DNA of 64,000 nt. Origin: Bacteroidetes bacterium HLUCCA01. Its GTDB lineage: Bacteria > Bacteroidota > Rhodothermia > Balneolales > HLUCCA01. The stretch's first letter is position 1; each line of letters begins with the position of its first letter. The DNA lies in assembly GCA_001314545.1 (NCBI GenBank), contig LIHN01000001.1, positions 276,180-340,179 of the forward strand, written 5' to 3'. Below the pieces are notes generated by a model, which saw only the letters and a list, made by a program, of their open reading frames with translations, was not told where the DNA came from and did not search any database. The position numbers and the translations under genes were made by a program. Of this stretch, positions 777 through 63,411 are shown one piece after another.

Positions 777-3551
777 ATGAAAAATCAAATTATCATACAC
801 GCTGCTGGAAAGCAGACTCGTATTGCCTTACTTGAAAACAATGAACTAGCTCAGTTATTTATTGAATCACCGGAAAACCAGCGCACTGTAGGCGACATCT
901 ACGTGGCGGAAGTCCGAAAAGTAATGGGGGGAATTCGCGCGGCATTCATTGATATGAATACCCCGAAAGATGCCTTCCTCCACTTCTCCGACCTCGGAGA
1001 ACATCTCGATGACTATCTCATCATGCTTAACGGGCAGGATGCCCTGCCCCAGGATGCACATAAAAGAGTGCGTGAGTTCCGGGAGAAAAAAGATGATTCC
1101 CAAAACACCAAAAACGGTACCACGGCCGAAGAACAAAATCTTTTAGGTAGCCTTCTCAAACCCGGGCACAAGGTACTGGTACAGATTGTCAAGGAACCTA
1201 TCGGATCCAAAGGCCCCCGGGTTTCAACCAATATTTCCATCGCCGGTCGATTTCTGGTGCTTATTCCCATGGGCGACTATGTAGCCGTCTCCAAACGCAT
1301 CCGCAGTTACAAGGAACGTCGTCAACTTCGGCAAACCGTAGCCGATATCCTGCCGGAAGGATTCGGTGTTATTGTGCGAACCGTAGCCGAAGGCGTTGAT
1401 CAGAAACTCATTGAGGAGGATTTGAACGATGTACTGGAAAAGTGGAATAACATTGTCAAAAACCTGCAGGGGGCCAAGCCTCCTACCCTGCTGCACCGCG
1501 ATCTTGACATGACCGAGAGTCTTGTGCGCGATCTGTTCGCCAAAGACTTTGAGCGAATTCTGGTCGATGACCCCAAGATGCATAAAACACTGAAGCATTA
1601 TGTATCGAAGATTGCTCCCAACTTGCTTCCGAATATCCAGCTGTATAAAGGCAACACGCATATATTCGATCATATGAATATCATGCAGGATGTGGAGTCG
1701 GTATTCAGTCCGAGGGTTAAGATGCCAAGCGGCGGGTACCTTATTTTTGAACAGACCGAAGCCATGTATGTGGTGGATGTTAACTCCGGCAGGTATGCGG
1801 CCAAAAAAGCACAGGAAGACAACTCTCTGAAAACCAACCTGGAATCGGCCCGGGAGATTGCCAAACAATTACGACTTCGTGACATCGGCGGGATTATCGT
1901 TGTGGATTTCATTGATTTGCGCGATGAGGTTAACCGCAAAAAGGTTTACGATGAGCTGAAAAAGGAATTCCGTAAAGACCGGGCGAAAACCAACGTGCTG
2001 CCGATGAGCGATTTCGGACTGGTTCAGATTACACGGCAGCGTATCCGTCCCAGTGTTGTCAAATCGGTCAGCCGGGTATGTCCGATGTGCGGTGGCGGAG
2101 GAAGCATCGTGTCTCAGAACACGATTTTGTCGGATATCGAAAGCTGGCTGTCCAAATTCCGTCATACCACCACATTCCGCTCCGTTGACCTGCACATCAA
2201 TCCGTACATGCGGGGTATGCTGACCAAAGGCTGGGTAAGTCAGCATTTCAAATGGATGCTCAAATACCGGCTCCGTATTGGAATTATTGAAGACATAAGC
2301 CTGTCTATGAACGACTATAAGTTCACCTTATCGGGTTCAGATGTTGAAATAACAGAGACCATACTGCATGAGCAATCCATTGAAGCTGCGATAAAGGCTG
2401 CTGAGAAAAGTATAGCCGAGCTGGAGAGTGAGCATAAGCGCGACAGTACAACGCTGGATATTTACAAAAAAGCGAAATCACGCAGTGAACAGTCAAGCAG
2501 AAATGGCGACTCCCGGGGCAGGACCACAAACGACGATGCAAATCGCTCCAGAGATCGCTCTGATAATGACCAGCGCGGCACTGCAAGAGGGCGATCAGCC
2601 GCATCCGACGAACCCAAAGGACCACGCCGCTCAACTCCGGCCAAACAGGCTGAACCCATTGAAGAACCAATGCAGGAGACCGAAAAGCCTGATAAAACAA
2701 CAAAAATTCAGGCTAATCCCCAGCGTAGAAACCAAAAAATTTCAAAGTACTACAAGAAGAGCGGCGATGAAGGCGAAGAAGATGTGAATACATCCGGTGA
2801 ACAGCCGTCTGCACCCAAGCCGGCCGAAACGCCAAAGCCATCGGTACAGGATGCTGAAATTCCCGATGAGCTCTCCCATCTGCGTTCGGCCTGGGAAGTA
2901 GCCAAGGAATACAAGCGTAAACGGGAAATGGAGCTTCAAAATGAAAGCAACGCCCCTGCCATGCCTGACGATGGTGACAAACAGGAAAAACAGCAGGAAC
3001 CCGAAACGAAGTCTGCACCTGCAATCACCGTAAAAAATCCGGAAACCCCGGCGAATGGGCAAAACGAAACGAAGCCTGATGATGCGTCAACCCCGGAAAA
3101 ACAGCAGGATGTCGTAAATGATACCTCGAAATCTGATGGGGATAGTGACGAGCCGGAAAGTGAATCGACCGAGGTAAAAGAAGAAGCGGTAAAAGCCGCC
3201 TCCGGTATTGTTCAGGCGCTTGTAGCTTCCAGCAAACTGAAGGAAGATACCCCTGCTGAGGAAGCCGATGAGGAAAAGGAAGATTCAGCCCCGGAACAGG
3301 ATACAACCGAAGTTGTTGAAACTGAAATCGTAACAGACCAACCCGTCAAACCGCGTAAAAAGACTGCTGCAGCAAAGACCGCCAAGACCAAGAAAAAAGC
3401 CCCGAGTGGCAAGAAGGCCAAAACTGCGGAAGAGGTAGCGCGAAAGACGGCAGCTAAGCGAAAAAGCAGCCCTGCCAAAGAAGACGGGCAAAACGCCGAT
3501 GATCGTGTTCAGCCGGATTCGGATACACCAACACAAACTACAGGCAACTAA
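777..3551 (+). CDS. Ribonuclease E/G family endoribonuclease with ~400-aa low-complexity C-terminal extension
   Basis: 924-aa ORF. The N-terminal ~520 aa carries the RNase E/G core: an S1-like start (GDIYVAEVRKVMGGIRAAFIDM), the catalytic block AMYVVDVNSGRY...AREIAKQLRLRDIGGIIVVDFIDL, and a Zn-link-like CPMCGGGG. The rest is a K/E/P/D/S/T-rich tail. Confidence 0.9.
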   Translation: MKNQIIIHAAGKQTRIALLENNELAQLFIESPENQRTVGDIYVAEVRKVMGGIRAAFIDMNTPKDAFLHFSDLGEHLDDYLIMLNGQDALPQDAHKRVREFREKKDDSQNTKNGTTAEEQNLLGSLLKPGHKVLVQIVKEPIGSKGPRVSTNISIAGRFLVLIPMGDYVAVSKRIRSYKERRQLRQTVADILPEGFGVIVRTVAEGVDQKLIEEDLNDVLEKWNNIVKNLQGAKPPTLLHRDLDMTESLVRDLFAKDFERILVDDPKMHKTLKHYVSKIAPNLLPNIQLYKGNTHIFDHMNIMQDVESVFSPRVKMPSGGYLIFEQTEAMYVVDVNSGRYAAKKAQEDNSLKTNLESAREIAKQLRLRDIGGIIVVDFIDLRDEVNRKKVYDELKKEFRKDRAKTNVLPMSDFGLVQITRQRIRPSVVKSVSRVCPMCGGGGSIVSQNTILSDIESWLSKFRHTTTFRSVDLHINPYMRGMLTKGWVSQHFKWMLKYRLRIGIIEDISLSMNDYKFTLSGSDVEITETILHEQSIEAAIKAAEKSIAELESEHKRDSTTLDIYKKAKSRSEQSSRNGDSRGRTTNDDANRSRDRSDNDQRGTARGRSAASDEPKGPRRSTPAKQAEPIEEPMQETEKPDKTTKIQANPQRRNQKISKYYKKSGDEGEEDVNTSGEQPSAPKPAETPKPSVQDAEIPDELSHLRSAWEVAKEYKRKREMELQNESNAPAMPDDGDKQEKQQEPETKSAPAITVKNPETPANGQNETKPDDASTPEKQQDVVNDTSKSDGDSDEPESESTEVKEEAVKAASGIVQALVASSKLKEDTPAEEADEEKEDSAPEQDTTEVVETEIVTDQPVKPRKKTAAAKTAKTKKKAPSGKKAKTAEEVARKTAAKRKSSPAKEDGQNADDRVQPDSDTPTQTTGN

Positions 3552-3557
3552 TACGAT

Positions 3558-4100
3558 ATGAGTTTCAACCTGCATGCAACTACGGTTGTTGGAATCATTC
3601 ACAATGGCAAAGCCGCCATTGGCAGTGACGGACAAGCTACACTGGACAAAATGGTAATGAAGTCGACCGTTCAGAAAGTACGCACATTGTACAATGGTAA
3701 AATCCTTGCCGGGTTTGCCGGCTCTACGGCCGACGCGTTTACCTTATTTGAAAAATTTGAGGAAAAAGTGAATCAGTATGGTGGCAATCTGCAGCGGGCA
3801 GCCGTTGAGATGGCTAAAGAATGGCGGCAAGACCGATACCTTCGCCGGCTCGAAGCCCTGCTGGTAGTCATGAATAACGAGAAAGGTCTACTCATATCAG
3901 GACAAGGCGACGTTATAGAGACGGATGATCAGATACTGACCATCGGTAGCGGTGGCTTTTATGCACTGGCGGCTGCAAGAGCCCTTAAAAAGCACGCACC
4001 GCACCTGAGTTCAAAGGAAATTATTCAGGAGTCGCTAACGGCAGCCGCCGACATTGACATCTACACCAACCACAATATTACGATTCTGGAGATCGACTGA
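3558..4100 (+). CDS. hslV: ATP-dependent protease subunit HslV
   Basis: [24 protein letters not shown]... and GSGG motifs are typical of HslV. It starts 6 nt after the RNase stop. The catalytic Thr-Thr is preceded by 7 residues (MSFNLHA), so either a propeptide is removed or the true start is uncertain. Confidence 0.9.
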
Positions 4101-4101
4101 T

Positions 4102-5514
4102 TTGAAGAAACTTGACGAACTGACCCCCAGTCAAATTGTTGCCGAACTCGATAAATACATCATTGGTCAGGCCGGTGCCAAAAAAGCCGTTGCTATTGCC
4201 CTGCGTAACCGTTGGCGCCGTATGCAGTCAGACGATGGGATTCGCGATGATATCATGCCCAATAATATCATTCTTATTGGTCCTACGGGTGTGGGTAAAA
4301 CTGAAATTGCCCGAAGACTTGCACGTCTCGCTAATGCTCCGTTTATCAAAGTTGAAGCGACTAAATACACGGAAGTCGGCTACGTCGGACGGGATGTCGA
4401 ATCGATTATTCGTGACCTTACCGACCTTTCCATTACCATGGTCAAGGCCGAAATGCAGGAGCGTGTAAAAGGTAAAGCTGCAGAAAACGTTGAAGAACGT
4501 ATACTTGACCTGCTCATTCCTCCTCTGAAAAAACCTGCCGGTTTTGGAAACACCATGCCCCGGCTGAAATCTTCCGATGATGACTCTTTCGATGCCGGAA
4601 GAGCCAGCGATGAAGAAATGAACGAGCGTACGCGTGATAAATTCCGCGAGAAGTTGCGCAGGGGTGATCTTGATGAGCGAACAATAGAGCTGGACGTACG
4701 TGCCGGTGGTAATCCCACCATGCAGATATTCGGTCCTGCGGGAATGGAAGAACTGGGCATGAATATTCAGGACATGCTCGGAAACTTGACGCCCCGGAAA
4801 ACGCGCAAGAAAACCGTCAAGATCAAGGATGCACGCACGATCCTTCTGGCTGAGGAGGCCGAAAAATTGGTCGACCAGGATGCCGCCGTTCAGGAAGCCC
4901 TGGAAAGGGTACAGACTTCGGGTATCGTCTTTATCGATGAAATCGACAAAGTTGCGGGGGGAACATCGGGTTCAGGTCAGGGCGGTCCGGATGTGAGCAG
5001 ACAAGGCGTGCAGCGCGACCTCCTCCCTATTGTGGAAGGTTCATCGGTTTCGACCAAGTATGGTCTGGTCAAAACCGACCACATTCTGTTCATTGCCTCC
5101 GGCGCGTTTCACGTTTCAAAACCTTCCGATCTTATACCGGAACTTCAGGGTCGCTTTCCGATCCGTGTTGAAATGGACAGCCTGAATGAAGAAGATTTCT
5201 ACAATATTCTCACTGTCCCAAGAAACGCCCTTACCAAACAATACGAGGCCATGCTGGCTTCCGAAGGGGTAACGCTGCGATTTGACGATAACGCCATCAA
5301 AGAAATTGCACGTCTTGCAGCAGAAGTGAACGCCTCGGTTGAAAATATTGGCGCCCGGCGTCTGCATACAATATTGACCAGCATACTGGAAGAGCTGCTT
5401 TATCTGGTTCCTGACGAAATCCGTGAAGGCGAAGTACTGGTAGACCGTGAATACGTCCTCAAACAGATCGGCAGTATCGTGCAGAACCGTGATTTAAGTC
5501 ATTATATTCTGTAA
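4102..5514 (+). CDS. hslU: ATP-dependent protease ATPase subunit HslU
   Basis: LTPSQIVAELDKYIIGQAGAKKAVAIALRNRWRR, Walker A GPTGVGKTEIARRLA, and FIDEIDK. The track start at 4054 overlaps hslV. An in-frame TTG at 4102 immediately follows the hslV stop and gives an N-terminus of canonical length. Confidence 0.9.
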   Translation: MKKLDELTPSQIVAELDKYIIGQAGAKKAVAIALRNRWRRMQSDDGIRDDIMPNNIILIGPTGVGKTEIARRLARLANAPFIKVEATKYTEVGYVGRDVESIIRDLTDLSITMVKAEMQERVKGKAAENVEERILDLLIPPLKKPAGFGNTMPRLKSSDDDSFDAGRASDEEMNERTRDKFREKLRRGDLDERTIELDVRAGGNPTMQIFGPAGMEELGMNIQDMLGNLTPRKTRKKTVKIKDARTILLAEEAEKLVDQDAAVQEALERVQTSGIVFIDEIDKVAGGTSGSGQGGPDVSRQGVQRDLLPIVEGSSVSTKYGLVKTDHILFIASGAFHVSKPSDLIPELQGRFPIRVEMDSLNEEDFYNILTVPRNALTKQYEAMLASEGVTLRFDDNAIKEIARLAAEVNASVENIGARRLHTILTSILEELLYLVPDEIREGEVLVDREYVLKQIGSIVQNRDLSHYIL

Positions 5515-35273: not shown

Positions 35274-36074
35274 CTACTTTCCGTATTTTATTTCTTCGAC
35301 AAATTCACGGGTGCGGTCGAGCCAGTCGGAATTAGGGTAGTTTTTACGGATGGTATCAATCAAGGCACTGCCAACCACAAAGCCACGCAGGCCGGCTGAT
35401 ATCTGCTTGGCGTCCTCATGCGATTTGATTCCAAACCCGACAAGGACCGGATTTTTGGTAATATTGGCTTTTACCCGGTCAATAAAACGCGAAACCGATT
35501 GCGCAACCTGATCGCCATCGCGTGCACCGGTTACACCGGTAACCGAGACACAATAGACAAAACCATGTGATTTTTGGTCGATCAAACGCATGCGCTCGTC
35601 CGTTGTATTGGGAGCAACAAGGTAAATCAAAGCCAGAGCGTGTTTGTCGCAATACGTCTCCACCAAACCAGCCTCCTCAACGGGAACATCAGGAAGAATG
35701 AATCCGTCAACCCCGGCCGAGGCTGCTTTTTCAAAGAACTTCTCCACACCGTAATACAGAATGGGGTTGATATAGCCCATCAGTACGATGGGTATGGAAG
35801 AGGTAATACGCACCTGCTTGACCATCTCAAAAATTGAATCCAGATCTGTTCCCTGCTCAATGGCAACCTCACTGGAGTACTGGATTGTTGGCCCGTCGGC
35901 CAGCGGGTCACTGAATGGCATACCCAGCTCGATGATATCAGCCCCGGACGATTCCAGAGCCGCTATAATATCGGGAGTTACGGCAGGCTCGGGGTATCCG
36001 GCTGTGATGAACATGGCCATTACAGGTTTCTGTCCTGCCTTTTGGAAAACGGAAGTTATTCGGTCTGAAGCCAT
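35274..36074 (-). CDS. trpA: Tryptophan synthase alpha chain
   Basis: FITAGYPE, ELGMPFSDPLADGPTIQ, GFGI. Confidence 0.95.
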   Translation of the reverse strand: MASDRITSVFQKAGQKPVMAMFITAGYPEPAVTPDIIAALESSGADIIELGMPFSDPLADGPTIQYSSEVAIEQGTDLDSIFEMVKQVRITSSIPIVLMGYINPILYYGVEKFFEKAASAGVDGFILPDVPVEEAGLVETYCDKHALALIYLVAPNTTDERMRLIDQKSHGFVYCVSVTGVTGARDGDQVAQSVSRFIDRVKANITKNPVLVGFGIKSHEDAKQISAGLRGFVVGSALIDTIRKNYPNSDWLDRTREFVEEIKYGK

Positions 36075-36077
36075 TGA

Positions 36078-37292
36078 TTAAATAAATTTTGAAATGGTAG
36101 CCATGTCTTTATCTCCACGACCGGAACAGTTTACCACAACGACTTCCCCGGCGGTGGTGGTGGGCATGAGCGTATTCAGAAAAGCCATTGCATGTGCCGT
36201 TTCCAGAGCCGGAATGATGCCTTCCATGGAGGAGGTTAAACGCACTCCTTCCAAAGCCTCTTCGTCGGTTACCGGAACGTACTGCACCCGTTTAATATCA
36301 TGAAGGTGGGCGTGCTCCGGTCCAACGCCCGGATAGTCGAGTCCGGCGCTTACCGAATGGGCGAGGGCTATTTGACCCTGATTGGTCTGCAGCAGGAAAC
36401 TTAAAGATCCATGTAAAACCCCCGGGGTACCTTTTGCAAACGTAGCGGCCGTCTTGCCGGATTCAACACCATAACCTGCCGCTTCAACACCAATCAATTT
36501 AACATGTTCATCTTCAATGAAGGGATAGAAGATCCCCATGGCATTGGATCCGCCTCCTACACAGGCTACTACATAGTCCGGAAGTTTTCCTTCAATTTTC
36601 TGGAGTTGGCTGCGGGTCTCATCGCCGATAATTCGATGAAAATCGCGCACCATCATGGGATACGGATGTGGCCCGACTACCGAGCCGATGATGTAGAACG
36701 TATCGTCAACGTTGGTGACCCAATCACGAATTGCTTCATTCGTTGCGTCTTTCAACGTTTGCGAACCGCTGGTAACCGGACGAACCTCAGCTCCAAGAAG
36801 TCGCATACGATCTACATTAAGTTTCTGCCGTTCAGTATCTTCGGCACCCATGTAAACAACACATTCCATTCCGAAGCGGGCGCATACCGTAGCAGTGGCA
36901 ACCCCGTGCTGACCAGCACCGGTCTCGGCAATGATTCGCTTTTTGCCCATGCGTCTGGCAAGCAACACCTGACCCACCGTGTTGTTGATTTTATGAGCAC
37001 CCGTATGACACAGGTCCTCCCGCTTGAGATAGATACGGGCTTTCCCGAAGTGTTCGGTAAGACGCTCGGCAAAGGTCAGCGGCGTTGGCCGGCCGACATA
37101 CTCCCGAAGTAAAAACATAAATTCCTCGTGAAACGAAGGATCATTTTTAACGTTCGCATACGCCGCCTCGAGTTCATTGAGTGCCGGTATCAGTATTTCG
37201 GGTACGAATTTGCCGCCAAACCGACCGAAGTAACCGTTCTTGGTTGGACTTGTATATTGCATGGTTTTTGGTTCTATGAGACTACCCTTCAT
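36078..37292 (-). CDS. trpB: Tryptophan synthase beta chain
   Basis: [34 protein letters not shown]. The alternative start ATG 37262 would remove the 11-nt overlap with trpF. Confidence 0.95.
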
Positions 37293-37938
37293 TTATTTTT
37301 TCCATTTCTGCGAAAAAGGCTTCCATCAGCGCGAAATCTTTAACTCCGGGGGATTCTTCCAGTGAACTGGACAGATCAACAGCATAGGGTTTTACCGTCT
37401 GAATGGCCCTGGCGACGTTGTGCGTACTCAACCCTCCGGACAAAAATATATCATGATCTTCAACAAGGTCGCCAAGTACTTCCCAGTTGAACGTAGCACC
37501 GGTCCCACCGGGTTGTCCCTGTACGTACGTGTCAAAAAGAAAGTAATCGACATACTTCACGTACGGTTCAATCAGATAACGCAGGTGATCGTGATTCATT
37601 TCAGGGCTCACCCGAAAAGCCTTGATGATTTTCAGATGGTTCAATTGCTGGCAATATTCCGGCGACTCAGCTCCGTGAAGCTGCACCACACTGGTTCCGC
37701 TGCTCAACGCAGTTTGCTGCACATATTCCACCGGCTGATTAACAAAAACACCTACACACTCGGGACCTTCAACCCAGTTTATAATTTCCTTGGCATTTTC
37801 TGGTGAAATATAGCGGGGTGAGCCGGGAAAGAAGATAAAGCCCAGATAGTCAGCCAGCGCACCGGATGCATACCGGGCATGATCCAGCCGGGTTAGACCA
37901 CAAATTTTTACTTTAGCTTTTTTTTCGTCTACAAACAT
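37282..37938 (-). CDS. trpF: Phosphoribosylanthranilate isomerase
   Basis: [13 protein letters not shown]..., [11 protein letters not shown], and LSGGL. ATG 37938 is preferred over the extended track start at 37992. Confidence 0.9.
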
Positions 37939-37951
37939 GGCTTGTTTTTTG

Positions 37952-38746
37952 TTATTTCTGGGTTTTAGGCTGCTGAATTGCCTTGAGTGCATCTCCGGGA
38001 TGCTCGGCTTTCATAAATTGTTCACCAATAAGAGCCGCGTGTATCCCCTGCCGGGCAAGGAACTGTAGATCAGTATAATCAGACAGTCCGCTTTCAGAAA
38101 CCAGACATACACCGGATGGAGCCTGTTTGAGCAAGCTGACTCCACGGTGAACATCCACTTCAAACGTATTTAAATTCCGGTTATTGACACCCAGAATGCG
38201 GACCGAATCAAAAGTGATTTTGTTGAAATCGTCCTGATCATAACATTCAACAAGACACTCCAGACCCGCTTCTTCAGCAGCGTGGTGAAGCTCATCGAGC
38301 TGCGATGAAGAAAGAATAGCCGCAATTAAAAGCACCGCATCAGCGCCAAATCCACGGGCCTCCTGAATCTGGTAAGGGTCAATGATGAAATCCTTACGCA
38401 GCACAGGGACACGGGCCCGTCTGGCTACGGATTTCATGTAGTTAAGATGACCCTGAAAAAAAGGCTCATCGGTCAGCACCGACAAGGCCGCAGCACCTGC
38501 ATCCATGTACTGTCCAGCAATGGTTTCGGCATCAAAGTTATGACTTATGACCCCCTTCGATGGAGAAGCTTTTTTGATTTCCGCAATGATGCGAACCGGA
38601 TTTTCACCAGATATCAGCGCATCATACAAACTTTTCCGCTCCCGAGCGTAGTCCTCAAAACCCTGGAAATCGGTGTATCCTACTTTTTTTTTCCTGCGAT
38701 GAAGGTCTTCGCGGGTCTGATGTGTGATTTTTTGGAGGATACTCAT
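37952..38746 (-). CDS. trpC: Indole-3-glycerol phosphate synthase
   Basis: IIAEIKKASPSKG, LRKDFIIDPYQI, VNNRNL, SESG. Confidence 0.95.
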   Translation of the reverse strand: MSILQKITHQTREDLHRRKKKVGYTDFQGFEDYARERKSLYDALISGENPVRIIAEIKKASPSKGVISHNFDAETIAGQYMDAGAAALSVLTDEPFFQGHLNYMKSVARRARVPVLRKDFIIDPYQIQEARGFGADAVLLIAAILSSSQLDELHHAAEEAGLECLVECYDQDDFNKITFDSVRILGVNNRNLNTFEVDVHRGVSLLKQAPSGVCLVSESGLSDYTDLQFLARQGIHAALIGEQFMKAEHPGDALKAIQQPKTQK

Positions 38747-39783
38747 GAAAGCGACTCCGAATCAAGCTGGGTTGTGCAGTCAGCAAATGAATTCAGGGCA
38801 TGTAATGCCGCCCCGGTTGCCAGGCTTTCCCGCGCCATACGTTGCGCCTGAATCAACGAATCGGCTTTACCGCTGGCCATTATTCCAAACGCAGCATTGA
38901 GCTCCACAATACCATTCTGTGCGGCAGTTGCCTTATTGCTAAGAATGGCTCTGATAATTGCAGCGTTTTCAGCGGCGTCCCCACCCTTAAATTCACTTTC
39001 ATCAAACATCTGGTAACCCAATTGGGTTGGATCAAAACGGACACCTTCACTTGATACACGATGTTTCATTTCGAAGGTATCGGTCAAAGCTGAAAGGGAT
39101 ACTTCATCCAGCCCGTCATGCGCATGCAGGGTGATTGCGTAGTCAGTGTCCAGGTTTGCCAAAATACGCGACATATCATGGGCTGTCTGCCGATTGTAGG
39201 CACCAATTACCTGCCGTTTAACGCCGGCTGGATTCACCAGCGGACCAAGAATATTGAAAAATGTACGCATGGCCAGGGTCTTCCGGGCCGGCATCACGAA
39301 CTTCATGGCCGGATGAAACAAGGGGGCAAACATGAAGGCCATCCGTGTCTGCTCAAAACAGACTTTTACTTTGGCAGGCTCAAGAGACGGTTGTACACCA
39401 AGCTCCACAAGTACGTCGTAGCTGCCACTTTTACTTGAAATACTTCTGTTTCCATGCTTCAGTACCGGTACGCCGGCCCCGGCTACTACAAACATCGCCG
39501 CTGTCGAGATATTGAATGTACCGGCGTGGTCGCCCCCTGTACCGCACAGGTCAACGGCTCCATCGGTGTTTACATCCAGCTTAACAGCATGATCACGCAT
39601 GGTCTGTACAAAGGCCGTCAGCTCTTCAATGGTCTCCCCTTTTGAGCGCATTCCAAAAAGAAAGGCCGCAATCTGCATGTCGGGCACTTCGCCGTGAAGT
39701 ATCATTTGCAGCGCTGCTGAAGCTTCCCGGCCGGTTAACGCCGTTCGGTCGCTGATTTTGTGCAATATGTCAGAAAAATTCAT
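38743..39783 (-). CDS. trpD: Anthranilate phosphoribosyltransferase
   Basis: DLCGTGGDHAGTFNISTAA, KHGNRS. Confidence 0.95.
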   Translation of the reverse strand: MNFSDILHKISDRTALTGREASAALQMILHGEVPDMQIAAFLFGMRSKGETIEELTAFVQTMRDHAVKLDVNTDGAVDLCGTGGDHAGTFNISTAAMFVVAGAGVPVLKHGNRSISSKSGSYDVLVELGVQPSLEPAKVKVCFEQTRMAFMFAPLFHPAMKFVMPARKTLAMRTFFNILGPLVNPAGVKRQVIGAYNRQTAHDMSRILANLDTDYAITLHAHDGLDEVSLSALTDTFEMKHRVSSEGVRFDPTQLGYQMFDESEFKGGDAAENAAIIRAILSNKATAAQNGIVELNAAFGIMASGKADSLIQAQRMARESLATGAALHALNSFADCTTQLDSESLS

Positions 39784-40343
39784 GCTCGTACCCAGTTCTC
39801 AATTAGTTTTGGCCCCTGTACCGTTAAAATACTTTCCGGATGAAACTGAATCCCCTCCACCGGAAATTCCCGGTGCCTGACGCCCATAATTACACCATCC
39901 GGTGTTGTGGATGAGACTTCAAGCACTTGCGGAAGCGACTCAGGCCGAAGAACCAGCGAATGGTACCGTGTGGCCGTAAATTCCTGCGGGACTCCTGAGA
40001 AAATGGTCTTCTGGTCGTGCCGGATGACCGATGTTTTGCCGTGCATCAGCGAGGGTGCATGAACGACTTCTCCCCCGTAGACCATACCAATGGCCTGGTG
40101 TCCCAGACAAACACCCAGAACGGGTATTTGCGGACCAAAACGGAGTATTAATTGGGGGGTGATTCCCGCGTCTTCGGGTCTGCCCGGTCCCGGAGAAATC
40201 AATATCTTCGAAGGGTTTAACGCGGCGACCTCCTCAAGGGTGATCTTGTCGTTCCGAACCACCGTGAACTGGCTGGTATGACCGGCAACCAGATGTACCA
40301 GGTTGTAGGTAAATGAATCGTAGTTGTCAATAATGAGTATCAT
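39780..40343 (-). CDS. trpG: Anthranilate synthase component II (glutamine amidotransferase)
   Basis: MILIIDNYDSFTYNL, GVCLGHQ, FHPES. ATG 40343 is preferred; the track start at 40385 overlaps trpS. Confidence 0.95.
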   Translation of the reverse strand: MILIIDNYDSFTYNLVHLVAGHTSQFTVVRNDKITLEEVAALNPSKILISPGPGRPEDAGITPQLILRFGPQIPVLGVCLGHQAIGMVYGGEVVHAPSLMHGKTSVIRHDQKTIFSGVPQEFTATRYHSLVLRPESLPQVLEVSSTTPDGVIMGVRHREFPVEGIQFHPESILTVQGPKLIENWVRA

Positions 40344-40353
40344 GCATGCGATA

Positions 40354-41361
40354 TTAAAAGTGCCGTACAATTCCCGTTGCTTCACGAATGGGTTTCATCA
40401 CCGACTCGGCCCGTTCCCTGGCTTTCTCCCCGCCAAGCCGGAGAATGCGATGTACCTCATCCTCGTTTTGAGACAGTATTTTGCGCTCATCTCTGGCTTT
40501 GGCAAAGTATGCATCAACCATGTCAAGCAATGCTTTTTTGGCATGACCGTATCCATAGCCCCCCTCCCGGTACAGTCGTGCGATTTCATTACGGTCGGCA
40601 TCGCTGGCAAACAGGGAGATTAAGGCGAAAACATTGCAGTTTTCCGGGTTTTTGGGATTCTCCAGAGGCGTGGAGTCTGTCTCTATAGACATAACACGTT
40701 TTTTCAGCTCTTTGCCCTCATCAAATATCCCGATGGTGTTGTTGTAGGATTTACTCATTTTACGACCATCGGTGCCGGGTACTGTGGCTACGGCTTTGAT
40801 GATACGCGCCTCGGGAAGCCGAAGTAATTCACGGTTGTATGCCAGATTAAGCTTTACAGCCAGGTCACGGGTGATTTCAATGTGCTGCTTCTGGTCGGCC
40901 CCAACCGGAACAACATCAGCGTGGTAAATCAGAATATCGGCAGCCTGAAGTACAGGATAGGTAAACAGACCGATGTTGGCGGACAACCCCTGTGCTACTT
41001 TGTCTTTGTAGGAAACGGCTTTTTCCATCAGACTAACCGGACACAAACTGCCTAAGATCCAGGCAAGTTCGGTTACCTGAGGTACATCGCTCTGGGCAAA
41101 AAAAGTACATTTGGTGTAATCCAGACCAAGGGCCAGGTAATCCAGTGCGATATCAAGGGTATGCCTGCGCATGAGCTCTCCGTTGTGACGGGAGGTTAAG
41201 GCATGGTAGTTGGCAATAAAAAAATAGGCATCCCCCTGCTGCTGGAGTTCAATATGCTGCTTCATCGCCCCGAAGTAGTTGCCGATGTGCAGCCGGCCGG
41301 ATGGGGTGATACCAGATAAAATGGTTTTCCGGTCGGTAAGCGTTTGTTGTTCTGTTTCCAT
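40354..41361 (-). CDS. trpS: Tryptophan--tRNA ligase
   Basis: SGITPSGRLHIGNYFGA (HIGH) and KMSKS (GRKMSKSYNN), with the ~330-aa class I TrpRS architecture. It lies between trpE and trpG. Confidence 0.95.
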   Translation of the reverse strand: METEQQTLTDRKTILSGITPSGRLHIGNYFGAMKQHIELQQQGDAYFFIANYHALTSRHNGELMRRHTLDIALDYLALGLDYTKCTFFAQSDVPQVTELAWILGSLCPVSLMEKAVSYKDKVAQGLSANIGLFTYPVLQAADILIYHADVVPVGADQKQHIEITRDLAVKLNLAYNRELLRLPEARIIKAVATVPGTDGRKMSKSYNNTIGIFDEGKELKKRVMSIETDSTPLENPKNPENCNVFALISLFASDADRNEIARLYREGGYGYGHAKKALLDMVDAYFAKARDERKILSQNEDEVHRILRLGGEKARERAESVMKPIREATGIVRHF

Positions 41362-41387: not shown

Positions 41388-42857
41388 TTAAGCGTTCATT
41401 TCAAGAGCAACGGAGAGTGCTTCTACCAGAGCCCGGGCTTTATTTACCGTTTCAGCATATTCATTTTCGGGAACAGAATCAGCCACAATACCGGCTCCTG
41501 CCTGAATGTAAACGGTATCCTGAGTTGCCACCATGGTCCGGATAGCGATGCAGGTGTCCATATTCCCGGAAAAATCAAAATACCCGACTGCCCCCGCATA
41601 CGGTCCTCGTTTTGCTACTTCCATTTCGTCGATGATCTGCATGGCACGTACCTTGGGTGCTCCGCTAACGGTTCCTGCCGGAAAACAATGAATCAGGGCG
41701 TCAACTGCGCTGCGGTCAGCAGCAAGCCGGCCTTCTACATCCGAGACGATGTGCATCACATGCGAGTATCGCTCGATGGCGTGTGATCTGGAAAGCTTCA
41801 CGGTACCCGGGGTGCAGATTCGTGAAAGGTCGTTCCGACCGAGGTCGACCAACATAAGATGTTCGGCCAGCTCTTTCGGATCGTTTATCAGGTCTTTTTC
41901 GTAAGCTTCATCCTCTTGAACCGATTTACCTCTTGGTCGTGTGCCTGCTATAGGCAATACCTCGGCGGTTCCGTGTTGAACCCTGACCAGCACTTCCGGC
42001 GATGAACCGACAAGGGCAAAATCGTGAAAGTCAAGGAAAAACAGGTAGGGGGATGGATTTACCATGCGAAGCGCACGGTAGAGCATAAACTTGTCTCCGG
42101 AATATCCTTTGGCAAACCGCTGGGAGAGCACTACCTGAAAGATATCGCCTTCGTAGATATACTGTTTGGCCTTACGGACCATTTCATGAAACTGCTCACG
42201 TGTTGTGTTACTGACCAGCGGGGCTTCATCCAGGGAAAATGAACCCATGCTAACCTCACGATTGAGTGTCTTTTGCATGGTGTCAAGGCATTCTGTTGCC
42301 TGATCATATTGTTCACGTAAATCTGCGGAGGTGTCAATAAACACCGTTTTAATCATCACAATCTGGTGCTTGACATGATCAAAGGCGTAAATCTGGTCGT
42401 AAAAAGCCCACATAGATTCGGGCAACCCCAACGTATCTTCAGGAACATCGGGCAGGTGTTCGGTATAGCGAATAGTATCATATGATGAATATCCAACAGC
42501 CCCACCGGTGAGTCGTGGCATATTCTCCAGTTCAGGCTCGGTATTTTTACCAATCAAGGAGCGCAATACTTCGTAGAACGGCACGCCCTGATAGCGTGTG
42601 ACATCCCGTGTTACTGTTATCTGTAATTCGGGAACCCCCTTATCCATTTTCAGCACCTGATACGGGTTTACCCCCAAAAAGGAATATCGGGCCAGGTTTT
42701 CTCCCCCCTCAACCGATTCAAACAAAAACGGAAACGAACCTTCTTGTCGTAGTTTAAGAAACAGACTCACCGGTGTGAGGATGTCCGCCATGGCCCGTCT
42801 GGCAACAGGGATGGCGGTAAATTCGCCCGATAAATGTGAAAATTGTTCGAATGTCAT
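41388..42857 (-). CDS. trpE: Anthranilate synthase component I
   Basis: LFESVEGGENLARYSF, PSPYLFF, GAPKVRAMQII, GAGIVADS. ATG 42857 (MTFEQF...) is preferred; the 36-nt track extension runs into the attenuator U-tract. Confidence 0.95.
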   Translation of the reverse strand: MTFEQFSHLSGEFTAIPVARRAMADILTPVSLFLKLRQEGSFPFLFESVEGGENLARYSFLGVNPYQVLKMDKGVPELQITVTRDVTRYQGVPFYEVLRSLIGKNTEPELENMPRLTGGAVGYSSYDTIRYTEHLPDVPEDTLGLPESMWAFYDQIYAFDHVKHQIVMIKTVFIDTSADLREQYDQATECLDTMQKTLNREVSMGSFSLDEAPLVSNTTREQFHEMVRKAKQYIYEGDIFQVVLSQRFAKGYSGDKFMLYRALRMVNPSPYLFFLDFHDFALVGSSPEVLVRVQHGTAEVLPIAGTRPRGKSVQEDEAYEKDLINDPKELAEHLMLVDLGRNDLSRICTPGTVKLSRSHAIERYSHVMHIVSDVEGRLAADRSAVDALIHCFPAGTVSGAPKVRAMQIIDEMEVAKRGPYAGAVGYFDFSGNMDTCIAIRTMVATQDTVYIQAGAGIVADSVPENEYAETVNKARALVEALSVALEMNA

Positions 42858-42873
42858 GATAGTATTGGCTGAA

Positions 42874-42969
42874 TAAAACAAAAAAACCCACAACAGAGAT
42901 CTGATGCGGGTTCGTCAAAAATAATCCGGGTTATAAACACAGCTTATGCGAACCGCTTACTCAGCGGCC
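42874..42969 (-). promoter_or_regulatory. trp attenuator RNA: alternative 1:2 / 2:3 (antiterminator) / 3:4 (terminator) hairpins
   Basis: Coordinates descend on the minus strand. 1:2 is CCGCU (42967-42963) with AGCGG (42957-42953). 2:3 is GCGGUUCG (42956-42949) with CGAACCCGC (42914-42906), 8 bp plus a 1-nt bulge. 3:4 is AACCCGCA (42912-42905) with UGUGGGUU (42892-42885), followed by U7GU4. It ends ~17 nt before the trpE ATG. Confidence 0.8.
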
Positions 42970-43006
42970 ACCACCAATTTGCATTTTGTTGTGCTTTAAA
43001 TTTCAT
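42944..43006 (-). CDS. trpL: trp operon leader peptide MKFKAQQNANWWWPLSKRFA (20 aa, three consecutive Trp codons)
   Basis: My own translation of the minus strand: ATG AAA TTT AAA GCA CAA CAA AAT GCA AAT TGG TGG TGG CCG CTG AGT AAG CGG TTC GCA TAA. The Trp codons are at 42976-42968. It is too short for the ORF track. Confidence 0.8.
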   Translation of the reverse strand: MKFKAQQNANWWWPLSKRFA

Positions 43007-43011
43007 GCGGG

Positions 43012-43042
43012 CAAAATTATACCCTCTTGCTGGCAAAGTCAA
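43012..43042 (-). promoter_or_regulatory. Predicted promoter of the trp leader/operon
   Basis: Minus strand TTGACT (43042-43037), a 17-nt spacer, then TAATTTTG (43019-43012), which overlaps TATAAT (43021-43016). The leader ATG begins 7 nt after TAATTT. Confidence 0.55.
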
Positions 43043-43100
43043 TGAAAATTATTCAACCCGGTAAAAAACTCGCGGATTACCCCTCCGGATACGGACCTGG

Positions 43101-43129
43101 TTGACATTCGCGCGTATCAGGGGTATACT
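43101..43129 (+). promoter_or_regulatory. Predicted promoter of the lipoprotein/BNR/PorV-like operon
   Basis: TTGACA (43101-43106), a 17-nt spacer, TATACT (43124-43129). The TTG of this -35 box is what the ORF track used as a start codon. Confidence 0.55.
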
Positions 43130-43160
43130 TATATGTTTCCCCGAAACCCAACTGCCCGTC

Positions 43161-43994
43161 TTGAAAGCTTCCTTATTTTTCACCGTTGTCCTCGTTCTGA
43201 TCACCGCTTCCTGCTCCGATTTACCCGACCGCGATGATGCAGGTGAACTTCTGCGTATTGAAACGTTGCGTGTCAGCCCGCAGCAGGTGGACTTCACGGC
43301 CGCCGATGGAGCCGTTGACACCACCGTGGTACACACAATCGATATGACCACCAGCGCCCTGAGCAGCGGTACGCTACCGGATAACCTGTCGGTCAGCTAT
43401 CTGTTGCGTGATGCGGCCAGCGGAGCAGTACTTATTGAGGGGTCCAATCCATTACCGGATCCCGTGGGTAGGATCACCACCGAATTTAGCTATATCGTTC
43501 GTACCTTTGATGTGACGGATGTGGATGTGCAGATTTATGTAAGCCAGGGTGACGAACTGGCTTCAAATACAGCCCGTACCACCTTACGCTATCGTGGATT
43601 TCAGCTGGGGGTACCCGAAATACGCTCCACAACAAACCCGGACACGGTGCGCATCCCTGCTGATGGAGCGCAGCCTTCCGGTTTCCGGCTTCAGGCGCTG
43701 GCCACCCACTCCACAGACCAGCAATTACTTGACCGCGTACTGGTTGACATCCGCGATCAAAACAACAACTTTCTTCCCGGTTCTCCTTTCCGTCTCTACG
43801 ACGATGGTAGTCAGAGCGAGCTTCAGGGGGGTACTACCTCCGGCGACCTGATTGCCGGCGACAGTACCTTCACCCGGTTGTTTCAGATAAATTCCGGTAA
43901 CAATCCGGATGTGTATACTTTATTTTACCACGCCGTTGACAATTTCGGCACCAGCAGCGATACGCTTCAATCTACCATGAGATTTATTCGCTAA
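43161..43994 (+). CDS. Lipoprotein, predicted all-beta (two Ig-like domains?), function unknown
   Basis: An in-frame TTG at 43161 gives (M)KASLFFTVVLVLITASCSD, a clean lipoprotein signal plus lipobox. The stop TAA abuts the next gene's ATG. Confidence 0.6.
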   Translation: MKASLFFTVVLVLITASCSDLPDRDDAGELLRIETLRVSPQQVDFTAADGAVDTTVVHTIDMTTSALSSGTLPDNLSVSYLLRDAASGAVLIEGSNPLPDPVGRITTEFSYIVRTFDVTDVDVQIYVSQGDELASNTARTTLRYRGFQLGVPEIRSTTNPDTVRIPADGAQPSGFRLQALATHSTDQQLLDRVLVDIRDQNNNFLPGSPFRLYDDGSQSELQGGTTSGDLIAGDSTFTRLFQINSGNNPDVYTLFYHAVDNFGTSSDTLQSTMRFIR

Positions 43995-45557
43995 ATGAAA
44001 CATGTCTTTCCCGCGCTTCTGCTCCTGTTTTTCATCATACCATCCGCCTATAGTCAGTCGGGCGGTCCGCTGCAGGAACGCATCCAGATATTTTCTCAAA
44101 ACGCCATCTCCAATATCGGTGTCATCGGCGATACCGTTTGGGTCGGACCCCTGCTGGCACGTAACATTGCCAATGAGTTCGACTGGTTTATCCCTGAGAG
44201 CGCAGACTCCGTAAATGACGGCCGTGGCCGACTTTTCTCCATAGCCCTTGCTCCGGATACCGTTGTAGCAGGGCTTGGGTTTAACGATGTGATTGGCGGA
44301 GAATCAGTTCAGACAGCCCAGGGCTTCTACCTCTCCGTTGACGGCGGTGAATCCTGGGAATTTATAAATCCGCCTTTAGACGATACGGAAGCCAATACCA
44401 TACCGTATGGTGGTCAGAATATTTCGGCAATTCCCATCATCGTGCCGCAGCAGTCCCCGCCCTTTAACGTGGCCTTCCGTGGTGACGCTATTTTTGCGGC
44501 TGCCTGGGCATCAGGAATACGGAGATCACTTGATTTCGGACAGACGTGGGACCGAATTCTGCTCCCTCCTTTTGAGCTGGATGAACTTACGCCGGAAGGA
44601 ACCTATGATTTCGTGTTTGACCCCAGGTCGCCATCGCCGGGATCACCCAATGCAGGCAGGTATCCCAACGGATGGCAAAATTTCCTGGGATTCAGCACCC
44701 TGATTGACCGTGACGGCCACGTATGGGCAGGTACAGCCGGTGGAATCAATATTTCAGAAAACGCCCTGAATGCGCCGGCCGACAGCATTCGATGGAGGCA
44801 TATCAGAGCCGGTAGTTCCCGGCAGCAAATGATGGGCAATTGGGTAATTCGGATCCGGGAGAACCCGTCAGACGGCAGCATATGGCTCACCAATTGGATA
44901 ACCAATCCCGGCGAAGGTCAGGGCCTCGTGGTAACATCGGATAAGGGAGTTACGTTTACCCGACATCTGCAGGGAGAACGCATTAACGACGTCAACTTTC
45001 TCGGAGACACAATAGTGGCAGCAGGAAATAGCGGACTGTTCATCAGCACCGACAACGGAAACACCTGGATACGTCAGCCGCAAATCCGCTCAGCCAATTC
45101 ATTTTTGAAAGAGGATGCCCAGTTCCGCAGTGTTGCTGCTGGAAACGAGCGTTTTTGGGTGGGCAGCAGCGACGGTCTTATTACTACCACAGATTACGGA
45201 AACACCTGGGAAATCATCCGTGTCGACTTCCCGCTAGACGGTCGCAATCAATTTCAGGATGAAGCTCCTGCCGTATCCTCGTATGCTTATCCCAATCCGT
45301 TCAGTCCAACCCAGCATGGAATTGTGCGTATACGCTTCAGGTCAGAGCAAGCCGGTCAGGCCGTGATCGAACTTTTTGACTTTGCCATGAATCGAATTGC
45401 CCGCCTTGATCCAGTTGCTTTGTCTGAACCCGGTGTGTACGAAGCGGCATGGAATGGAACGGATGAAAATGGAATACGGGTTGCCAACGGGCCTGTATTT
45501 TACAGGGTTTCCATCCCAGGAGAAACCATCAACGGCAAACTTCTGATGCTTGACTAA
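43995..45557 (+). CDS. BNR/Asp-box beta-propeller protein (Ycf48/sortilin-like) with T9SS-type C-terminal domain
   Basis: Signal peptide ...IIPSAYSQ. Five Asp-boxes: SVDGGESW, SLDFGQTW, TSDKGVTF, STDNGNTW, TTDYGNTW. C-terminus YAYPNPFSPTQHGIVRIRFRSEQAGQAVIELFDFAMNRI...GPVFYRVSI. Confidence 0.75.
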   Translation: MKHVFPALLLLFFIIPSAYSQSGGPLQERIQIFSQNAISNIGVIGDTVWVGPLLARNIANEFDWFIPESADSVNDGRGRLFSIALAPDTVVAGLGFNDVIGGESVQTAQGFYLSVDGGESWEFINPPLDDTEANTIPYGGQNISAIPIIVPQQSPPFNVAFRGDAIFAAAWASGIRRSLDFGQTWDRILLPPFELDELTPEGTYDFVFDPRSPSPGSPNAGRYPNGWQNFLGFSTLIDRDGHVWAGTAGGINISENALNAPADSIRWRHIRAGSSRQQMMGNWVIRIRENPSDGSIWLTNWITNPGEGQGLVVTSDKGVTFTRHLQGERINDVNFLGDTIVAAGNSGLFISTDNGNTWIRQPQIRSANSFLKEDAQFRSVAAGNERFWVGSSDGLITTTDYGNTWEIIRVDFPLDGRNQFQDEAPAVSSYAYPNPFSPTQHGIVRIRFRSEQAGQAVIELFDFAMNRIARLDPVALSEPGVYEAAWNGTDENGIRVANGPVFYRVSIPGETINGKLLMLD

Positions 45558-55301: not shown

Positions 55302-55475
55302 AAGTAATGTTATGCTTCGTGGAGTTGTTAACTTTAACTTCGCGATGGCGATCACCGCTGAACGTACAGACACATGGTAATATGTATCCATAATTCACTA
55401 AAATTACGCAATTTTCCTTTCATCAACAATTTAATTTCAGTACCATTGTCAATTGTGCCCCATAAAAAGCTTTGC

Positions 55476-56828
55476 ATGTGCCGAGCAGCAGCGGTTTTAT
55501 CGCTAAGTTTTGTTTTTTTCTTTCTTGGTGCGTTCGGCTCCACCGGCAACGCCCAAACATCCTTTACCGGATTCCTGCGGCATGAAACCGGCGTGCAGCA
55601 CACCCGCTCCCAGGACGTGCTATTCTCGCGAAATATCATCCAGGCTGTTTTTTCATCCGAAAACGAGGATTGGACCATTCAACTGACTCCGTGGCTGGCC
55701 CAGCGTAATCCGTCGGGTGAAGCCATCCCTGCTGCCGATCTGCGAATAAGGGAAGCCTACGTTGGATGGGAGTCTTTCACATGGCAGATTCGTGCCGGCC
55801 GTCAGTTCATACCCTCATTATCGTCTTTCGCAGACCCGGGAAGCGATTTTTTTGTCCCGTATGATTTCTCCGAATTCCTCAGTCGCGACCCCTCCGATAT
55901 CGACCTGGGCGTCAATGCGCTGCGGGTGCAGCACTACAGACTCAACAACACCTTTGAACTCATCGCCATACCTGTTTTTCAACCGTCTACCCTTCCTGAC
56001 ATTGAATCACGGTGGAATATCATTCCGCTGGATGCCATCACCGGTGGTGTTGGTCAGCCAGTCATAGAAGAATCCAACCGTGACACAGACCGGCTGCAGT
56101 TCGGACTTCGCTGGTCTAACCGAACCTGGCTAAAATGGGATTTTAACGCCACTCTTTACAGCGGATATTACCCCCAACCAGCGTTTCGCAAGGAAGTTCT
56201 TTATGCTGATAATACCGGTTTACCAAGCGACATAGCGTTGAGCCAATCGTATGTGAACAGCACGGTCATCCTGCTTGAGACAGAATACCGAAGCAATCGT
56301 AACTGGGTTTCAGGAGCAGCATTGACCTATTGGTCAGACACGCCTACAGATACCTTCCCTGTTGCGCTCAGATCAGACACCACCCTTACATTGAATCAAC
56401 TGCTGGAAACCATCGAATCTTACAACCAAACTGCTTTTACCCGAAGCTCCGGGTTGTTCCAGGCCGCTTTTTTTGTCCAAAAAACCCTGATGGGCACGCA
56501 GTTCCGGCTCGGATACACTGCGCAACTGCTTGAAAACCATCAAAAAGACACACTGCAAGATTTCCTGTTTCAAAGCATCTCACTAAACGCATCGCGTCAG
56601 GAGCTCAATGACTATCTGCAAATGCTGCTGCTCGGTCGTTTTAACATTAATGGCAGGGACGCCTGGGTAAGCCCGCAATTGACGTATACCGTTTTTGACG
56701 GAGTGGCCCTGAGCGCAGGATCCCAATTTTTTATAGGAACCGAACCTGATCCTTTCTACGCACATCTCAGTTTCGCACCGTTGCGGCAAAATTCTTTTTC
56801 GTACCTGAAACTAACCGCGTACTGGTAG
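55476..56828 (+). CDS. Outer-membrane beta-barrel protein (alginate-export / DUF1302-like motif), function unknown
   Basis: Signal peptide MCRAAAVLSLSFVFFFLGAFGSTGNAQ. DLRIREAYVGWESFTWQIRAGRQ resembles the lrEAY...R.GRQ motif of alginate-export/DUF1302 barrels. The C-terminus is ...YLKLTAYW. Confidence 0.5.
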   Translation: MCRAAAVLSLSFVFFFLGAFGSTGNAQTSFTGFLRHETGVQHTRSQDVLFSRNIIQAVFSSENEDWTIQLTPWLAQRNPSGEAIPAADLRIREAYVGWESFTWQIRAGRQFIPSLSSFADPGSDFFVPYDFSEFLSRDPSDIDLGVNALRVQHYRLNNTFELIAIPVFQPSTLPDIESRWNIIPLDAITGGVGQPVIEESNRDTDRLQFGLRWSNRTWLKWDFNATLYSGYYPQPAFRKEVLYADNTGLPSDIALSQSYVNSTVILLETEYRSNRNWVSGAALTYWSDTPTDTFPVALRSDTTLTLNQLLETIESYNQTAFTRSSGLFQAAFFVQKTLMGTQFRLGYTAQLLENHQKDTLQDFLFQSISLNASRQELNDYLQMLLLGRFNINGRDAWVSPQLTYTVFDGVALSAGSQFFIGTEPDPFYAHLSFAPLRQNSFSYLKLTAYW

Positions 56829-63380: not shown

Positions 63381-63411
63381 TTGACATTTCACGCAGATGA
63401 CCCTAATTTTG
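63381..63411 (+). promoter_or_regulatory. Predicted nuo operon promoter
   Basis: TTGACA (63381-63386), a 17-nt spacer, TAATTTTG (63404-63411), located 27 nt upstream of the nuoA ATG. The track used the -35 TTG as a start codon. Confidence 0.55.

Follow-up and report, generated by a model that had tools for sequence, protein, structure and literature searches.

A predicted ribosome-mediated attenuator, conserved among Balneolales, upstream of a tryptophan operon that includes trpS

Introduction

Leader-peptide attenuation is a textbook mechanism of gene control that has been documented experimentally in few phyla. In the Bacteroidetes, the Rfam family Bacteroid-trp lies upstream of trp genes and is of the leader-peptide type. 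Here we describe a candidate attenuator of this kind on the minus strand of a 64,000-nucleotide stretch of contig LIHN01000001.1 (positions 276,180 to 340,179) from Bacteroidetes bacterium HLUCCA01. This whole stretch is called the window below, and all coordinates are positions within it unless another locus is named. The element lies just ahead of trpE, the first gene of a predicted trpE-trpS-trpGDCFBA operon, and consists of a short open reading frame (ORF) with three consecutive Trp codons followed by mutually exclusive RNA hairpins, the last of which resembles an intrinsic terminator.

Classical trp attenuators with runs of Trp codons are known outside the Proteobacteria from Corynebacterium and Streptomyces (PMC1262725, PMC4833913). 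Attenuation also reaches aminoacyl-tRNA synthetase genes, namely pheST in gammaproteobacteria and, as a prediction, trpS2 in Streptomyces avermitilis (PMC1262725). Closer to the present locus, Weinberg et al. (2010, PMC2864571) count Bacteroid-trp (RF01692) among the likely cis-regulatory RNA motifs of Bacteroidetes. Leader peptides can also be translated from leaderless transcripts, as mapped in Deinococcus deserti, where one of them serves trpEGD (PMC4007540), and in mycobacteria, in the form of poly-Cys short ORFs.

Results and discussion

Architecture of the trpE leader

The leader elements, all read on the minus strand, are as follows.

42944 to 43006, minus: trpL-like leader ORF, MKFKAQQNANWWWPLSKRFA plus stop; 20 codons, with the ATG at 43006 and TAA at 42946-42944.
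42968 to 42976, minus: tandem Trp codons (TGG, three times; codons 11-13 by direct reading), the proposed sensing site.
42948 to 42971, minus: hairpin 1:2 (anti-antiterminator), with core CCGCU (42967-42963) and AGCGG (42957-42953); 9 base pairs (bp), -12.5 kcal/mol by RNAfold.
42949 to 42956, minus: segment 2, GCGGUUCG, partner of segment 1 or segment 3 in RNAduplex and masked folds.
42906 to 42914, minus: segment 3, CGAACCCGC, partner of segment 2 (antiterminator) or segment 4 (terminator) in RNAduplex and masked folds.
42884 to 42913, minus: terminator hairpin 3:4, GAACCCGCA U CAG AUCU CUG U UGUGGGUUU; -16.3 kcal/mol.
42912-42905 and 42892-42885, minus: the terminator arms, AACCCGCA and UGUGGGUU, by direct reading.
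42875 to 42886, minus: U7-G-U4 tract, the proposed termination point, with U7 at 42886-42880, then G, then U4 to 42875.

This arrangement had been proposed from the letters of the window alone, and direct reading of the minus strand agrees with that original prediction to the base at every coordinate, including the 20-codon ORF and its three TGG codons at 42976-42968. Downstream of the Trp run (WWW) the codons are CCG CUG AGU AAG CGG UUC GCA, then UAA. Segment 1 (CCGCU) begins directly after the third Trp codon and pairs with AGCGG as proposed, and RNAfold extends this hairpin to 9 bp. Segment 2, GCGGUUCG, stops 2 nucleotides (nt) short of the leader stop codon. Its alternative pairing with segment 3 is borne out both by the coordinates, since the antiterminator uses nucleotides of the terminator 5' arm, and by the GCGGUUCG:CGAACCCGC duplex, which reaches -9.9 kcal/mol with one bulged C. 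The proposed terminator hairpin folds at -16.3 kcal/mol by itself, and its U7GU4 tail finishes 17 nt ahead of the trpE ATG (42857).

The minimum free energy (MFE) fold of 43010-42860 by RNAfold (-41.3 kcal/mol, z = -2.15; 5 of 200 shuffles were as good) holds hairpin 1:2 together with the terminator. A simple consensus terminator scanner failed to call the hairpin in the window: with the inner stem counted in, the apparent loop exceeds 8 nt.

The optimal antiterminator of the window, and likewise that of relatives L213, L087 and L211, takes in a further pairing, between CUGA (the end of segment 1 plus the loop) and UCAG of the inner stem. This additional pairing suggests that the antiterminator is longer than originally described.

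We propose that these elements would operate as follows. Transcription would begin at the leader AUG or no more than about 3 nt from it, and a ribosome would translate the 20-codon leader while RNA polymerase makes the next ~100 nt. When charged tRNA-Trp is scarce, the ribosome would stall with UGG in its A site and cover segment 1 (CCGCU and the preceding GG); free segment 2, GCGGUUCG, could then pair with segment 3, CGAACCCGC, so that no terminator forms and polymerase enters trpE. When charged tRNA-Trp is plentiful, the ribosome would reach UAA and mask segment 2 or, if it has already left, hairpin 1:2 would form. Either way segment 3 would pair with segment 4, and transcription would end in the U7GU4 tract. 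The transcription start, the coupling of transcription to translation and the response to tryptophan are the parts of this model that we infer.

The leader layout is conserved while its sequence is not

Homologues of the window TrpE were retrieved independently of the leader: 11 were fetched by exact protein (65-79% TrpE identity to that of the window; ten distinct upstream sequences), and their upstream DNA was read. The closest database relatives in this identity range carry the names Balneolales, Balneolaceae, Fodinibius and Cyclonatronaceae, and judged by these TrpE relatives the predicted source of the window is an uncultured member of the Balneolales. A TrpE identical to that of the window turned up in a JGI metagenome and nowhere else. 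A pattern scan of metagenome contigs (TGGTGGTGG-N65-95-GYGGGTTTTTT) added seven further Balneolales-type leaders, whose adjoining TrpE is 57-65% identical. The resulting comparative set comprises 18 sequences, and hairpin 1:2, segment 2 and the terminator 5' arm were unconstrained by the scan pattern.

All 11 of the TrpE-anchored relatives have the same leader layout upstream of trpE, with both the tandem Trp codons and the paired segments. Across the full set the conserved features are the promoter, the ATG, the number of codons ahead of the Trp run, the Trp run itself, a hairpin at the WWW boundary and a terminator with its U-run. Seventeen of 18 sequences have WWW, and L081 has WWR. Ahead of the run stand 8-11 codons in 17 leaders, most commonly 10, and 15 in the distant L193. 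The ten N-terminal codons vary, and the peptide after WWW differs between clades (PLSKRFA, PLV, PIR, SIR, SL, PVLNYIQAVARL, LLTKEAVGRL, PNAYTGSGIVA and others), which argues that the RNA pairings and the reading frame with its Trp codons are under selection, and the peptide is not. The first nucleotide of the stop codon lies at +7, +10, +22, +31 to +37 or +49 relative to WWW. It falls inside the loop of hairpin 1:2 in L081 (about 1850-1900), L087, L089, L210 and L211 and at the loop edge in L213; these six relatives have leaders of 13-17 codons, and in leaders of the window type the stop lies just past segment 2.

Every pairing segment varies in sequence across the 18 leaders while the pairings persist. 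The MFE folds of all 18 contain hairpin 1:2 and the terminator, and a U-run follows the terminator hairpin in each. In 17 of 18, hairpin 1:2 begins close to the end of WWW (-5 to +3 nt), and in the window it overlaps segment 2 by 10 nt. When the leaders were aligned with MAFFT without structural guidance, the outer stem of the terminator was 95.8% paired, compared with 28-55% when the partners were slid by 1-3 columns. Exchanges in this stem comprise one A-U/U-A pair (7 vs 7 sequences), one A-U/G-C and one G-U/A-U/G-C, and two pairs are changed on both sides. The alignment of related trpE upstream regions proposed earlier retains the Trp codons and shows a terminator stem that stays paired through compensatory changes.

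The antiterminator also covaries. CCCGC G of segment 3 faces the C of GCGG in segment 2 in nine sequences, and CCCAC A faces the U of GUGG in the other nine. More distal 2:3 pairs are changed on both sides, as in UUCG:CGAA (window), CUCA:UGA (L213), ACUG:CAG (L089) and GGCCG:CGGCC (L193). This table was anchored on the well-aligned columns of segment 3, and a test against 500 dinucleotide-shuffled linkers served as its control: the 2:3 duplex on average outdoes its shuffles in every sequence (mean z = -2.46), and 10 of the 18 leaders reach the 5% level or better. We also folded transcripts cut before segment 4. When pairing was forbidden at the positions occupied by a Trp-stalled ribosome, segment 3 found its partner 8-34 nt after WWW in 18 of 18 leaders; when the same was done for a ribosome at the stop codon, segment 3 stayed largely unpaired in 13 of 18.

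Ribosome footprint geometry

To place the ribosome we took it to occupy -15 to +12 nt relative to the first base of the codon in its A site. In all 18 leaders, a ribosome poised at any one of the three UGG codons would then hide the 5' arm of hairpin 1:2 and leave segment 2 exposed. With the stop codon in the A site, segment 2 of the window is covered completely (9/9 nt), and at least 58% of segment 2 is covered in 17 of 18, even though the stop positions of those 17 leaders range from +7 to +37. Where the stop lies at +7 to +22, segment 2 lies at +8 to +23; where the stop lies at +31 to +37, segment 2 lies at +14 to +29. Segment 2 and the stop codon have therefore moved together, an observation that is predicted by the classical model and is hard to explain otherwise. 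The claim that the geometry matches classical E. coli-type attenuation, originally made from one sequence, is in this way supported by masked folds and footprint tests over 18 leaders.

Weighing the attenuation model

Attenuation at this locus is supported computationally, by energetics, conservation, compensatory change and footprint geometry, and on these grounds we consider it highly probable that a ribosome-mediated, leader-peptide attenuator controls the trpE-trpS-trpGDCFBA operon. Several observations weigh against this reading. In the window alone, 28 of 500 shuffled linkers give a 2:3 duplex as good as the natural one, so that the strength of the case rests on the comparative data and not on the single window sequence, which is modestly better than shuffles. 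At about -10 to -13 kcal/mol, the 2:3 duplex is less stable than the terminator at -16.3 kcal/mol, and read-through must therefore rely on kinetics. In L193, the most distant and most GC-rich leader, the stop codon is too far downstream, and a terminating ribosome misses segment 2.

Other points concern the sample and the pair tables. Seven of the 18 sequences were picked by a pattern with WWW and the 3' arm of the terminator built in. For 1:2 and 2:3 the pairs were tabulated from the optimal duplex of each sequence, which biases the tables towards structure. In the MAFFT alignment of the 18 leaders, the register of helices 1:2 and 2:3 shifts from clade to clade, and only terminator pairs were counted there. 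The 1:2 and 2:3 cores are invariant inside the closest clade, and their covariation comes only from deeper comparisons. Finally, hairpin 1:2 shares only 2-3 nt with segment 2 in L163, L088 and L161 (clade B). In these three, read-through might be the default state of an untranslated leader. L163 has a GCCCA further upstream, among its N-terminal codons, that may sequester segment 2 instead.

Alternative explanations

One alternative would be an additional function and would not exclude attenuation: the terminated leader RNA of ~125 nt, its peptide, or both, might also act in trans. A trans-acting leader transcript and peptide, rnTrpL and peTrpL, are described for Sinorhizobium meliloti (PMC6614838, PMC7298713). 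What suggests such a role here is the terminator, whose inner stem CAG/CUG and flanks (42905-42892) are near-invariant in L081-L086, L210 and L213, with TrpE 69-79% identical to that of the window; this exceeds the need of a generic terminator. However, the conservation is also explained by the requirement that segment 3 pair with both segment 2 and segment 4, and the leader peptide sequence is not conserved. We regard a trans-acting leader as improbable.

Much the same terminator could instead be constitutive, regulated in some other way or act as an insulator, with the WWW ORF being fortuitous and untranslated, and with any control by Trp exerted through a promoter repressor. Short ORFs are indeed common by chance, and a scan of the window found other repeat-containing ones, including one with three Cys codons (CCC) inside a long ORF. 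That short ORF (MTICKCCCSVVLTLMAGTPG, 56608-56670, plus strand), the one other candidate with a T-run behind it that was checked, lies within a 484-amino-acid ORF (55374-56828) and was set aside as most likely a chance occurrence. The trpE leader differs in that the ORF, its pre-Trp length and its Trp run are kept through the 18 sequences while the surrounding codons diverge, the hairpin begins at the WWW boundary in almost all of them, and segment 2 tracks a moving stop codon. Moreover, a constitutive terminator 28 nt ahead of an eight-gene operon, with no promoter between, would silence that operon. Nor can the terminator belong to a preceding gene, because the upstream neighbour is divergently transcribed, with a promoter-like site of its own (TTGACA, 17 nt, TATACT at 43101-43129). 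These data make a fortuitous ORF very unlikely.

Terminator and antiterminator logic is compatible with any sensor, and T-box, TRAP and TnaC-type mechanisms do control trp-related genes in other bacteria. The leader could be read by a trans-acting sensor, which might be uncharged tRNA-Trp (T-box-like), a TRAP-like protein, or free tryptophan acting through a TnaC-like nascent peptide. A T-box was rejected: neither the 2-kb region searched at E <= 10 nor the whole window searched at gathering score matched a T-box or any other Rfam family. TRAP requires 9-11 (G/U)AG repeats at intervals of 2-3 nt that overlap the antiterminator; a single GAG and zero UAG occur in the leader (43006-42880). A TnaC-like arrest peptide was set aside on the grounds that the post-WWW peptide is unconserved between clades and the stop position varies. 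A sensor of this kind is scarcely probable, given that the competing structures keep to places set by the Trp codons and the stop, which is what a ribosome footprint would lead one to expect.

A predicted promoter that abuts the leader ATG

The original prediction identified the attenuator, a reading that stands, and overlooked two features of the locus: a promoter that abuts the leader ATG and the presence of trpS in the operon. The promoter elements are as follows.

43037 to 43042, minus: predicted -35 hexamer of the trp promoter, TTGACT; with the -10 hexamer, the best -35/-10 pair within 90 nt upstream, with a 17-nt spacer.
43014 to 43019, minus: predicted -10 hexamer, TAATTT, ending 7 nt ahead of the leader ATG; predicted transcription start about 43008-43006.

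Hexamers resembling a -35 element, TTGAC(A/T) or TTGC(A/T), occur at the homologous place in 17 of 18 leaders, and in 16 of 18 the -10 element ends 6-9 nt ahead of the ATG. In L213, 6 nt separate the -10 end from an in-frame GTG that restores the 10-codon spacing, and L088, from Fodinibius salsisoli, has only a weaker promoter site at the homologous place. Strict motifs of the trp promoter type number 12 in 128 kb (both strands), so that chance would place one in a 4-nt window before a given ATG about 4 times in 10,000. If transcription starts 6-9 nt past the -10 element, the +1 position would fall at or within about 3 nt of the AUG, too close for a Shine-Dalgarno sequence to fit in.

Shine-Dalgarno signals are absent from the related Rhodothermaceae, as they are from Bacteroidetes in general (PMC3155529). 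The promoter spacing suggests that the leader peptide could be translated from a leaderless or near-leaderless mRNA, a prediction that we hold as about evenly balanced. The same spacing was found ahead of none of the long ORFs in the window, which gives no independent support to the notion that leaderless mRNAs are common here.

A second strict promoter-like site lies at 63381-63409 on the plus strand. Its hexamers (TTGACA, 17 nt, TAATTT) equal those of the trp promoters of relatives, it is followed by TGCGCATC..., and it has no ATG at leaderless spacing.

The operon and its neighbours

The genes downstream of the leader, all on the minus strand, are as follows.

41388 to 42857, minus: trpE (anthranilate synthase component I), the first regulated gene; TIGR00564, 561 bits (cutoff 517.7).
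40354 to 41361, minus: trpS (tryptophan--tRNA ligase), inside the operon between trpE and trpG; TIGR00233, 294 bits (cutoff 176.75).
35274 to 40385, minus: trpG, trpD, trpC, trpF, trpB and trpA, tightly packed or overlapping, each with an NCBIfam match.

All of these matches exceed the curated cutoff except that of trpF, which falls just under it (202 vs 215 bits). A tRNA-synt_1b gene stands between trpE and trpG in 11 of 11 TrpE-anchored relatives (L081-L089 and L210-L213, about 3490-4700). Judged from this gene order, a single Trp-codon sensor would govern trpS along with tryptophan synthesis. This arrangement suggests a feedback in which the charging enzyme and the amino-acid supply would be raised together when charged tRNA-Trp falls. 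A literature search, which was not exhaustive, found no description of trpS embedded in a trp operon behind a shared attenuator.

The divergent neighbour occupies 43101-43994 on the plus strand, and its TTGACA/TATACT motif is conserved in L081 and L083. Its ORF, from a TTG near 43161, is lipoprotein-like by eye (MKASLFFTVVLVLITASC) and has no NCBIfam match. In relatives the divergent neighbour is followed by a gene of ~500-540 amino acids with faint or weak Pfam matches (BNR, Sortilin-Vps10 or FlgD_ig) or none.

A family that existing models miss

A covariance scan of positions 42000-44000 with Rfam (cmscan, permissive filters) gave no match at E <= 10, including to Trp_leader and Bacteroid-trp. 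The Trp_leader scan suggested with the original prediction therefore does not recognise the window, although the same library recognised a gammaproteobacterial leader used as a control (L150, Trp_leader 41.7 bits vs a gathering score of 41). For Bacteroid-trp the negative stands without a positive control of that kind. At gathering score, Rfam had no match in the whole window and no family match in nine Balneolales-type loci. Because the Trp_leader and Bacteroid-trp models miss the element, annotation pipelines will miss it too.

We also looked for the design outside the Balneolales. Among 74 listed TrpE loci from other phyla (45-49% identity), not one had, in the 350 nt upstream, a WW short ORF with a T5 run after it; short ORFs of the RWW type do occur in a few gammaproteobacterial loci. 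As a positive control, the same search recovered 9 of 10 Balneolales loci and missed L213, because the called gene start of that locus lies upstream of the leader. The metagenome scan also turned up a WWW or WWWW leader ORF and a terminator directly ahead of trpE in many GC-rich contigs of other lineages, whose TrpE is 30-45% identical. These loci include L097, L113, L126, L157, L166, L184, L189, L195, L197, L199 and L204, among others. Two that were sampled, L157 and L195, had no Rfam family at gathering score, and among the scanned loci only L150 was a Trp_leader. Judged from these sequences, the attenuator design is patchy across bacteria and consistent within the Balneolales, and the coverage of trp leaders by Rfam looks thin.

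Significance and comparison with known systems

The predicted element is a classical attenuator in a lineage and a sequence family not yet catalogued. It is of an expected kind and does not overturn current understanding; as a covarying example, it would extend leader-peptide attenuation to the Balneolales, within the Fibrobacteres-Chlorobi-Bacteroidetes (FCB) superphylum. It also offers a test case for two questions, namely whether ribosome and polymerase are coupled in lineages that do not use Shine-Dalgarno initiation, and whether a leaderless leader peptide can drive attenuation. A fuller picture would combine a distinct RNA family absent from Rfam, a leaderless leader with its first nucleotide at the A of AUG and translation that begins without a Shine-Dalgarno sequence, a distance of ~10 codons from the 5' end to the Trp run that may time the ribosome against polymerase, a single sensor for synthesis and trpS, and perhaps an abundant terminated leader acting in trans. 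We put this combination forward tentatively, as slightly more doubtful than the leaderless start taken by itself.

Compared with E. coli trpL (Trp_leader, RF00513), the Balneolales leader has the same overall plan. Both contain a short ORF whose tandem Trp codons fall at about codons 10-13, and both have four segments that form exclusive 1:2, 2:3 and 3:4 pairings, with 3:4 being an intrinsic terminator before trpE. In both, the stop codon adjoins segment 2, and the same footprint logic applies. Unlike the E. coli element, the Balneolales leader carries three Trp codons rather than two, and its segment 1 lies just downstream of the Trp codons instead of containing them. Sequence or structure homology between the two is not detectable. 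The predicted -10 element ends 7 nt before the AUG and leaves no room for a Shine-Dalgarno sequence, and the operon includes trpS.

Bacteroid-trp comes from the same superphylum, Bacteroidetes and Balneolales both belonging to FCB, but its model matches neither the window nor the nine Balneolales-type loci, and the two are separate sequence families. The leaderless leader peptides of Deinococcus deserti and mycobacteria resemble the present case in view of the short distance, 6-9 nt in almost all leaders, that separates the end of the Balneolales -10 element from the AUG. They differ in phylum and share no sequence similarity with it, and their starts are mapped, whereas the start is only predicted here. 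Finally, the actinobacterial trpS gene predicted to be under attenuation has an attenuator of its own, whereas trpS of the Balneolales would share one with the whole pathway for tryptophan synthesis.

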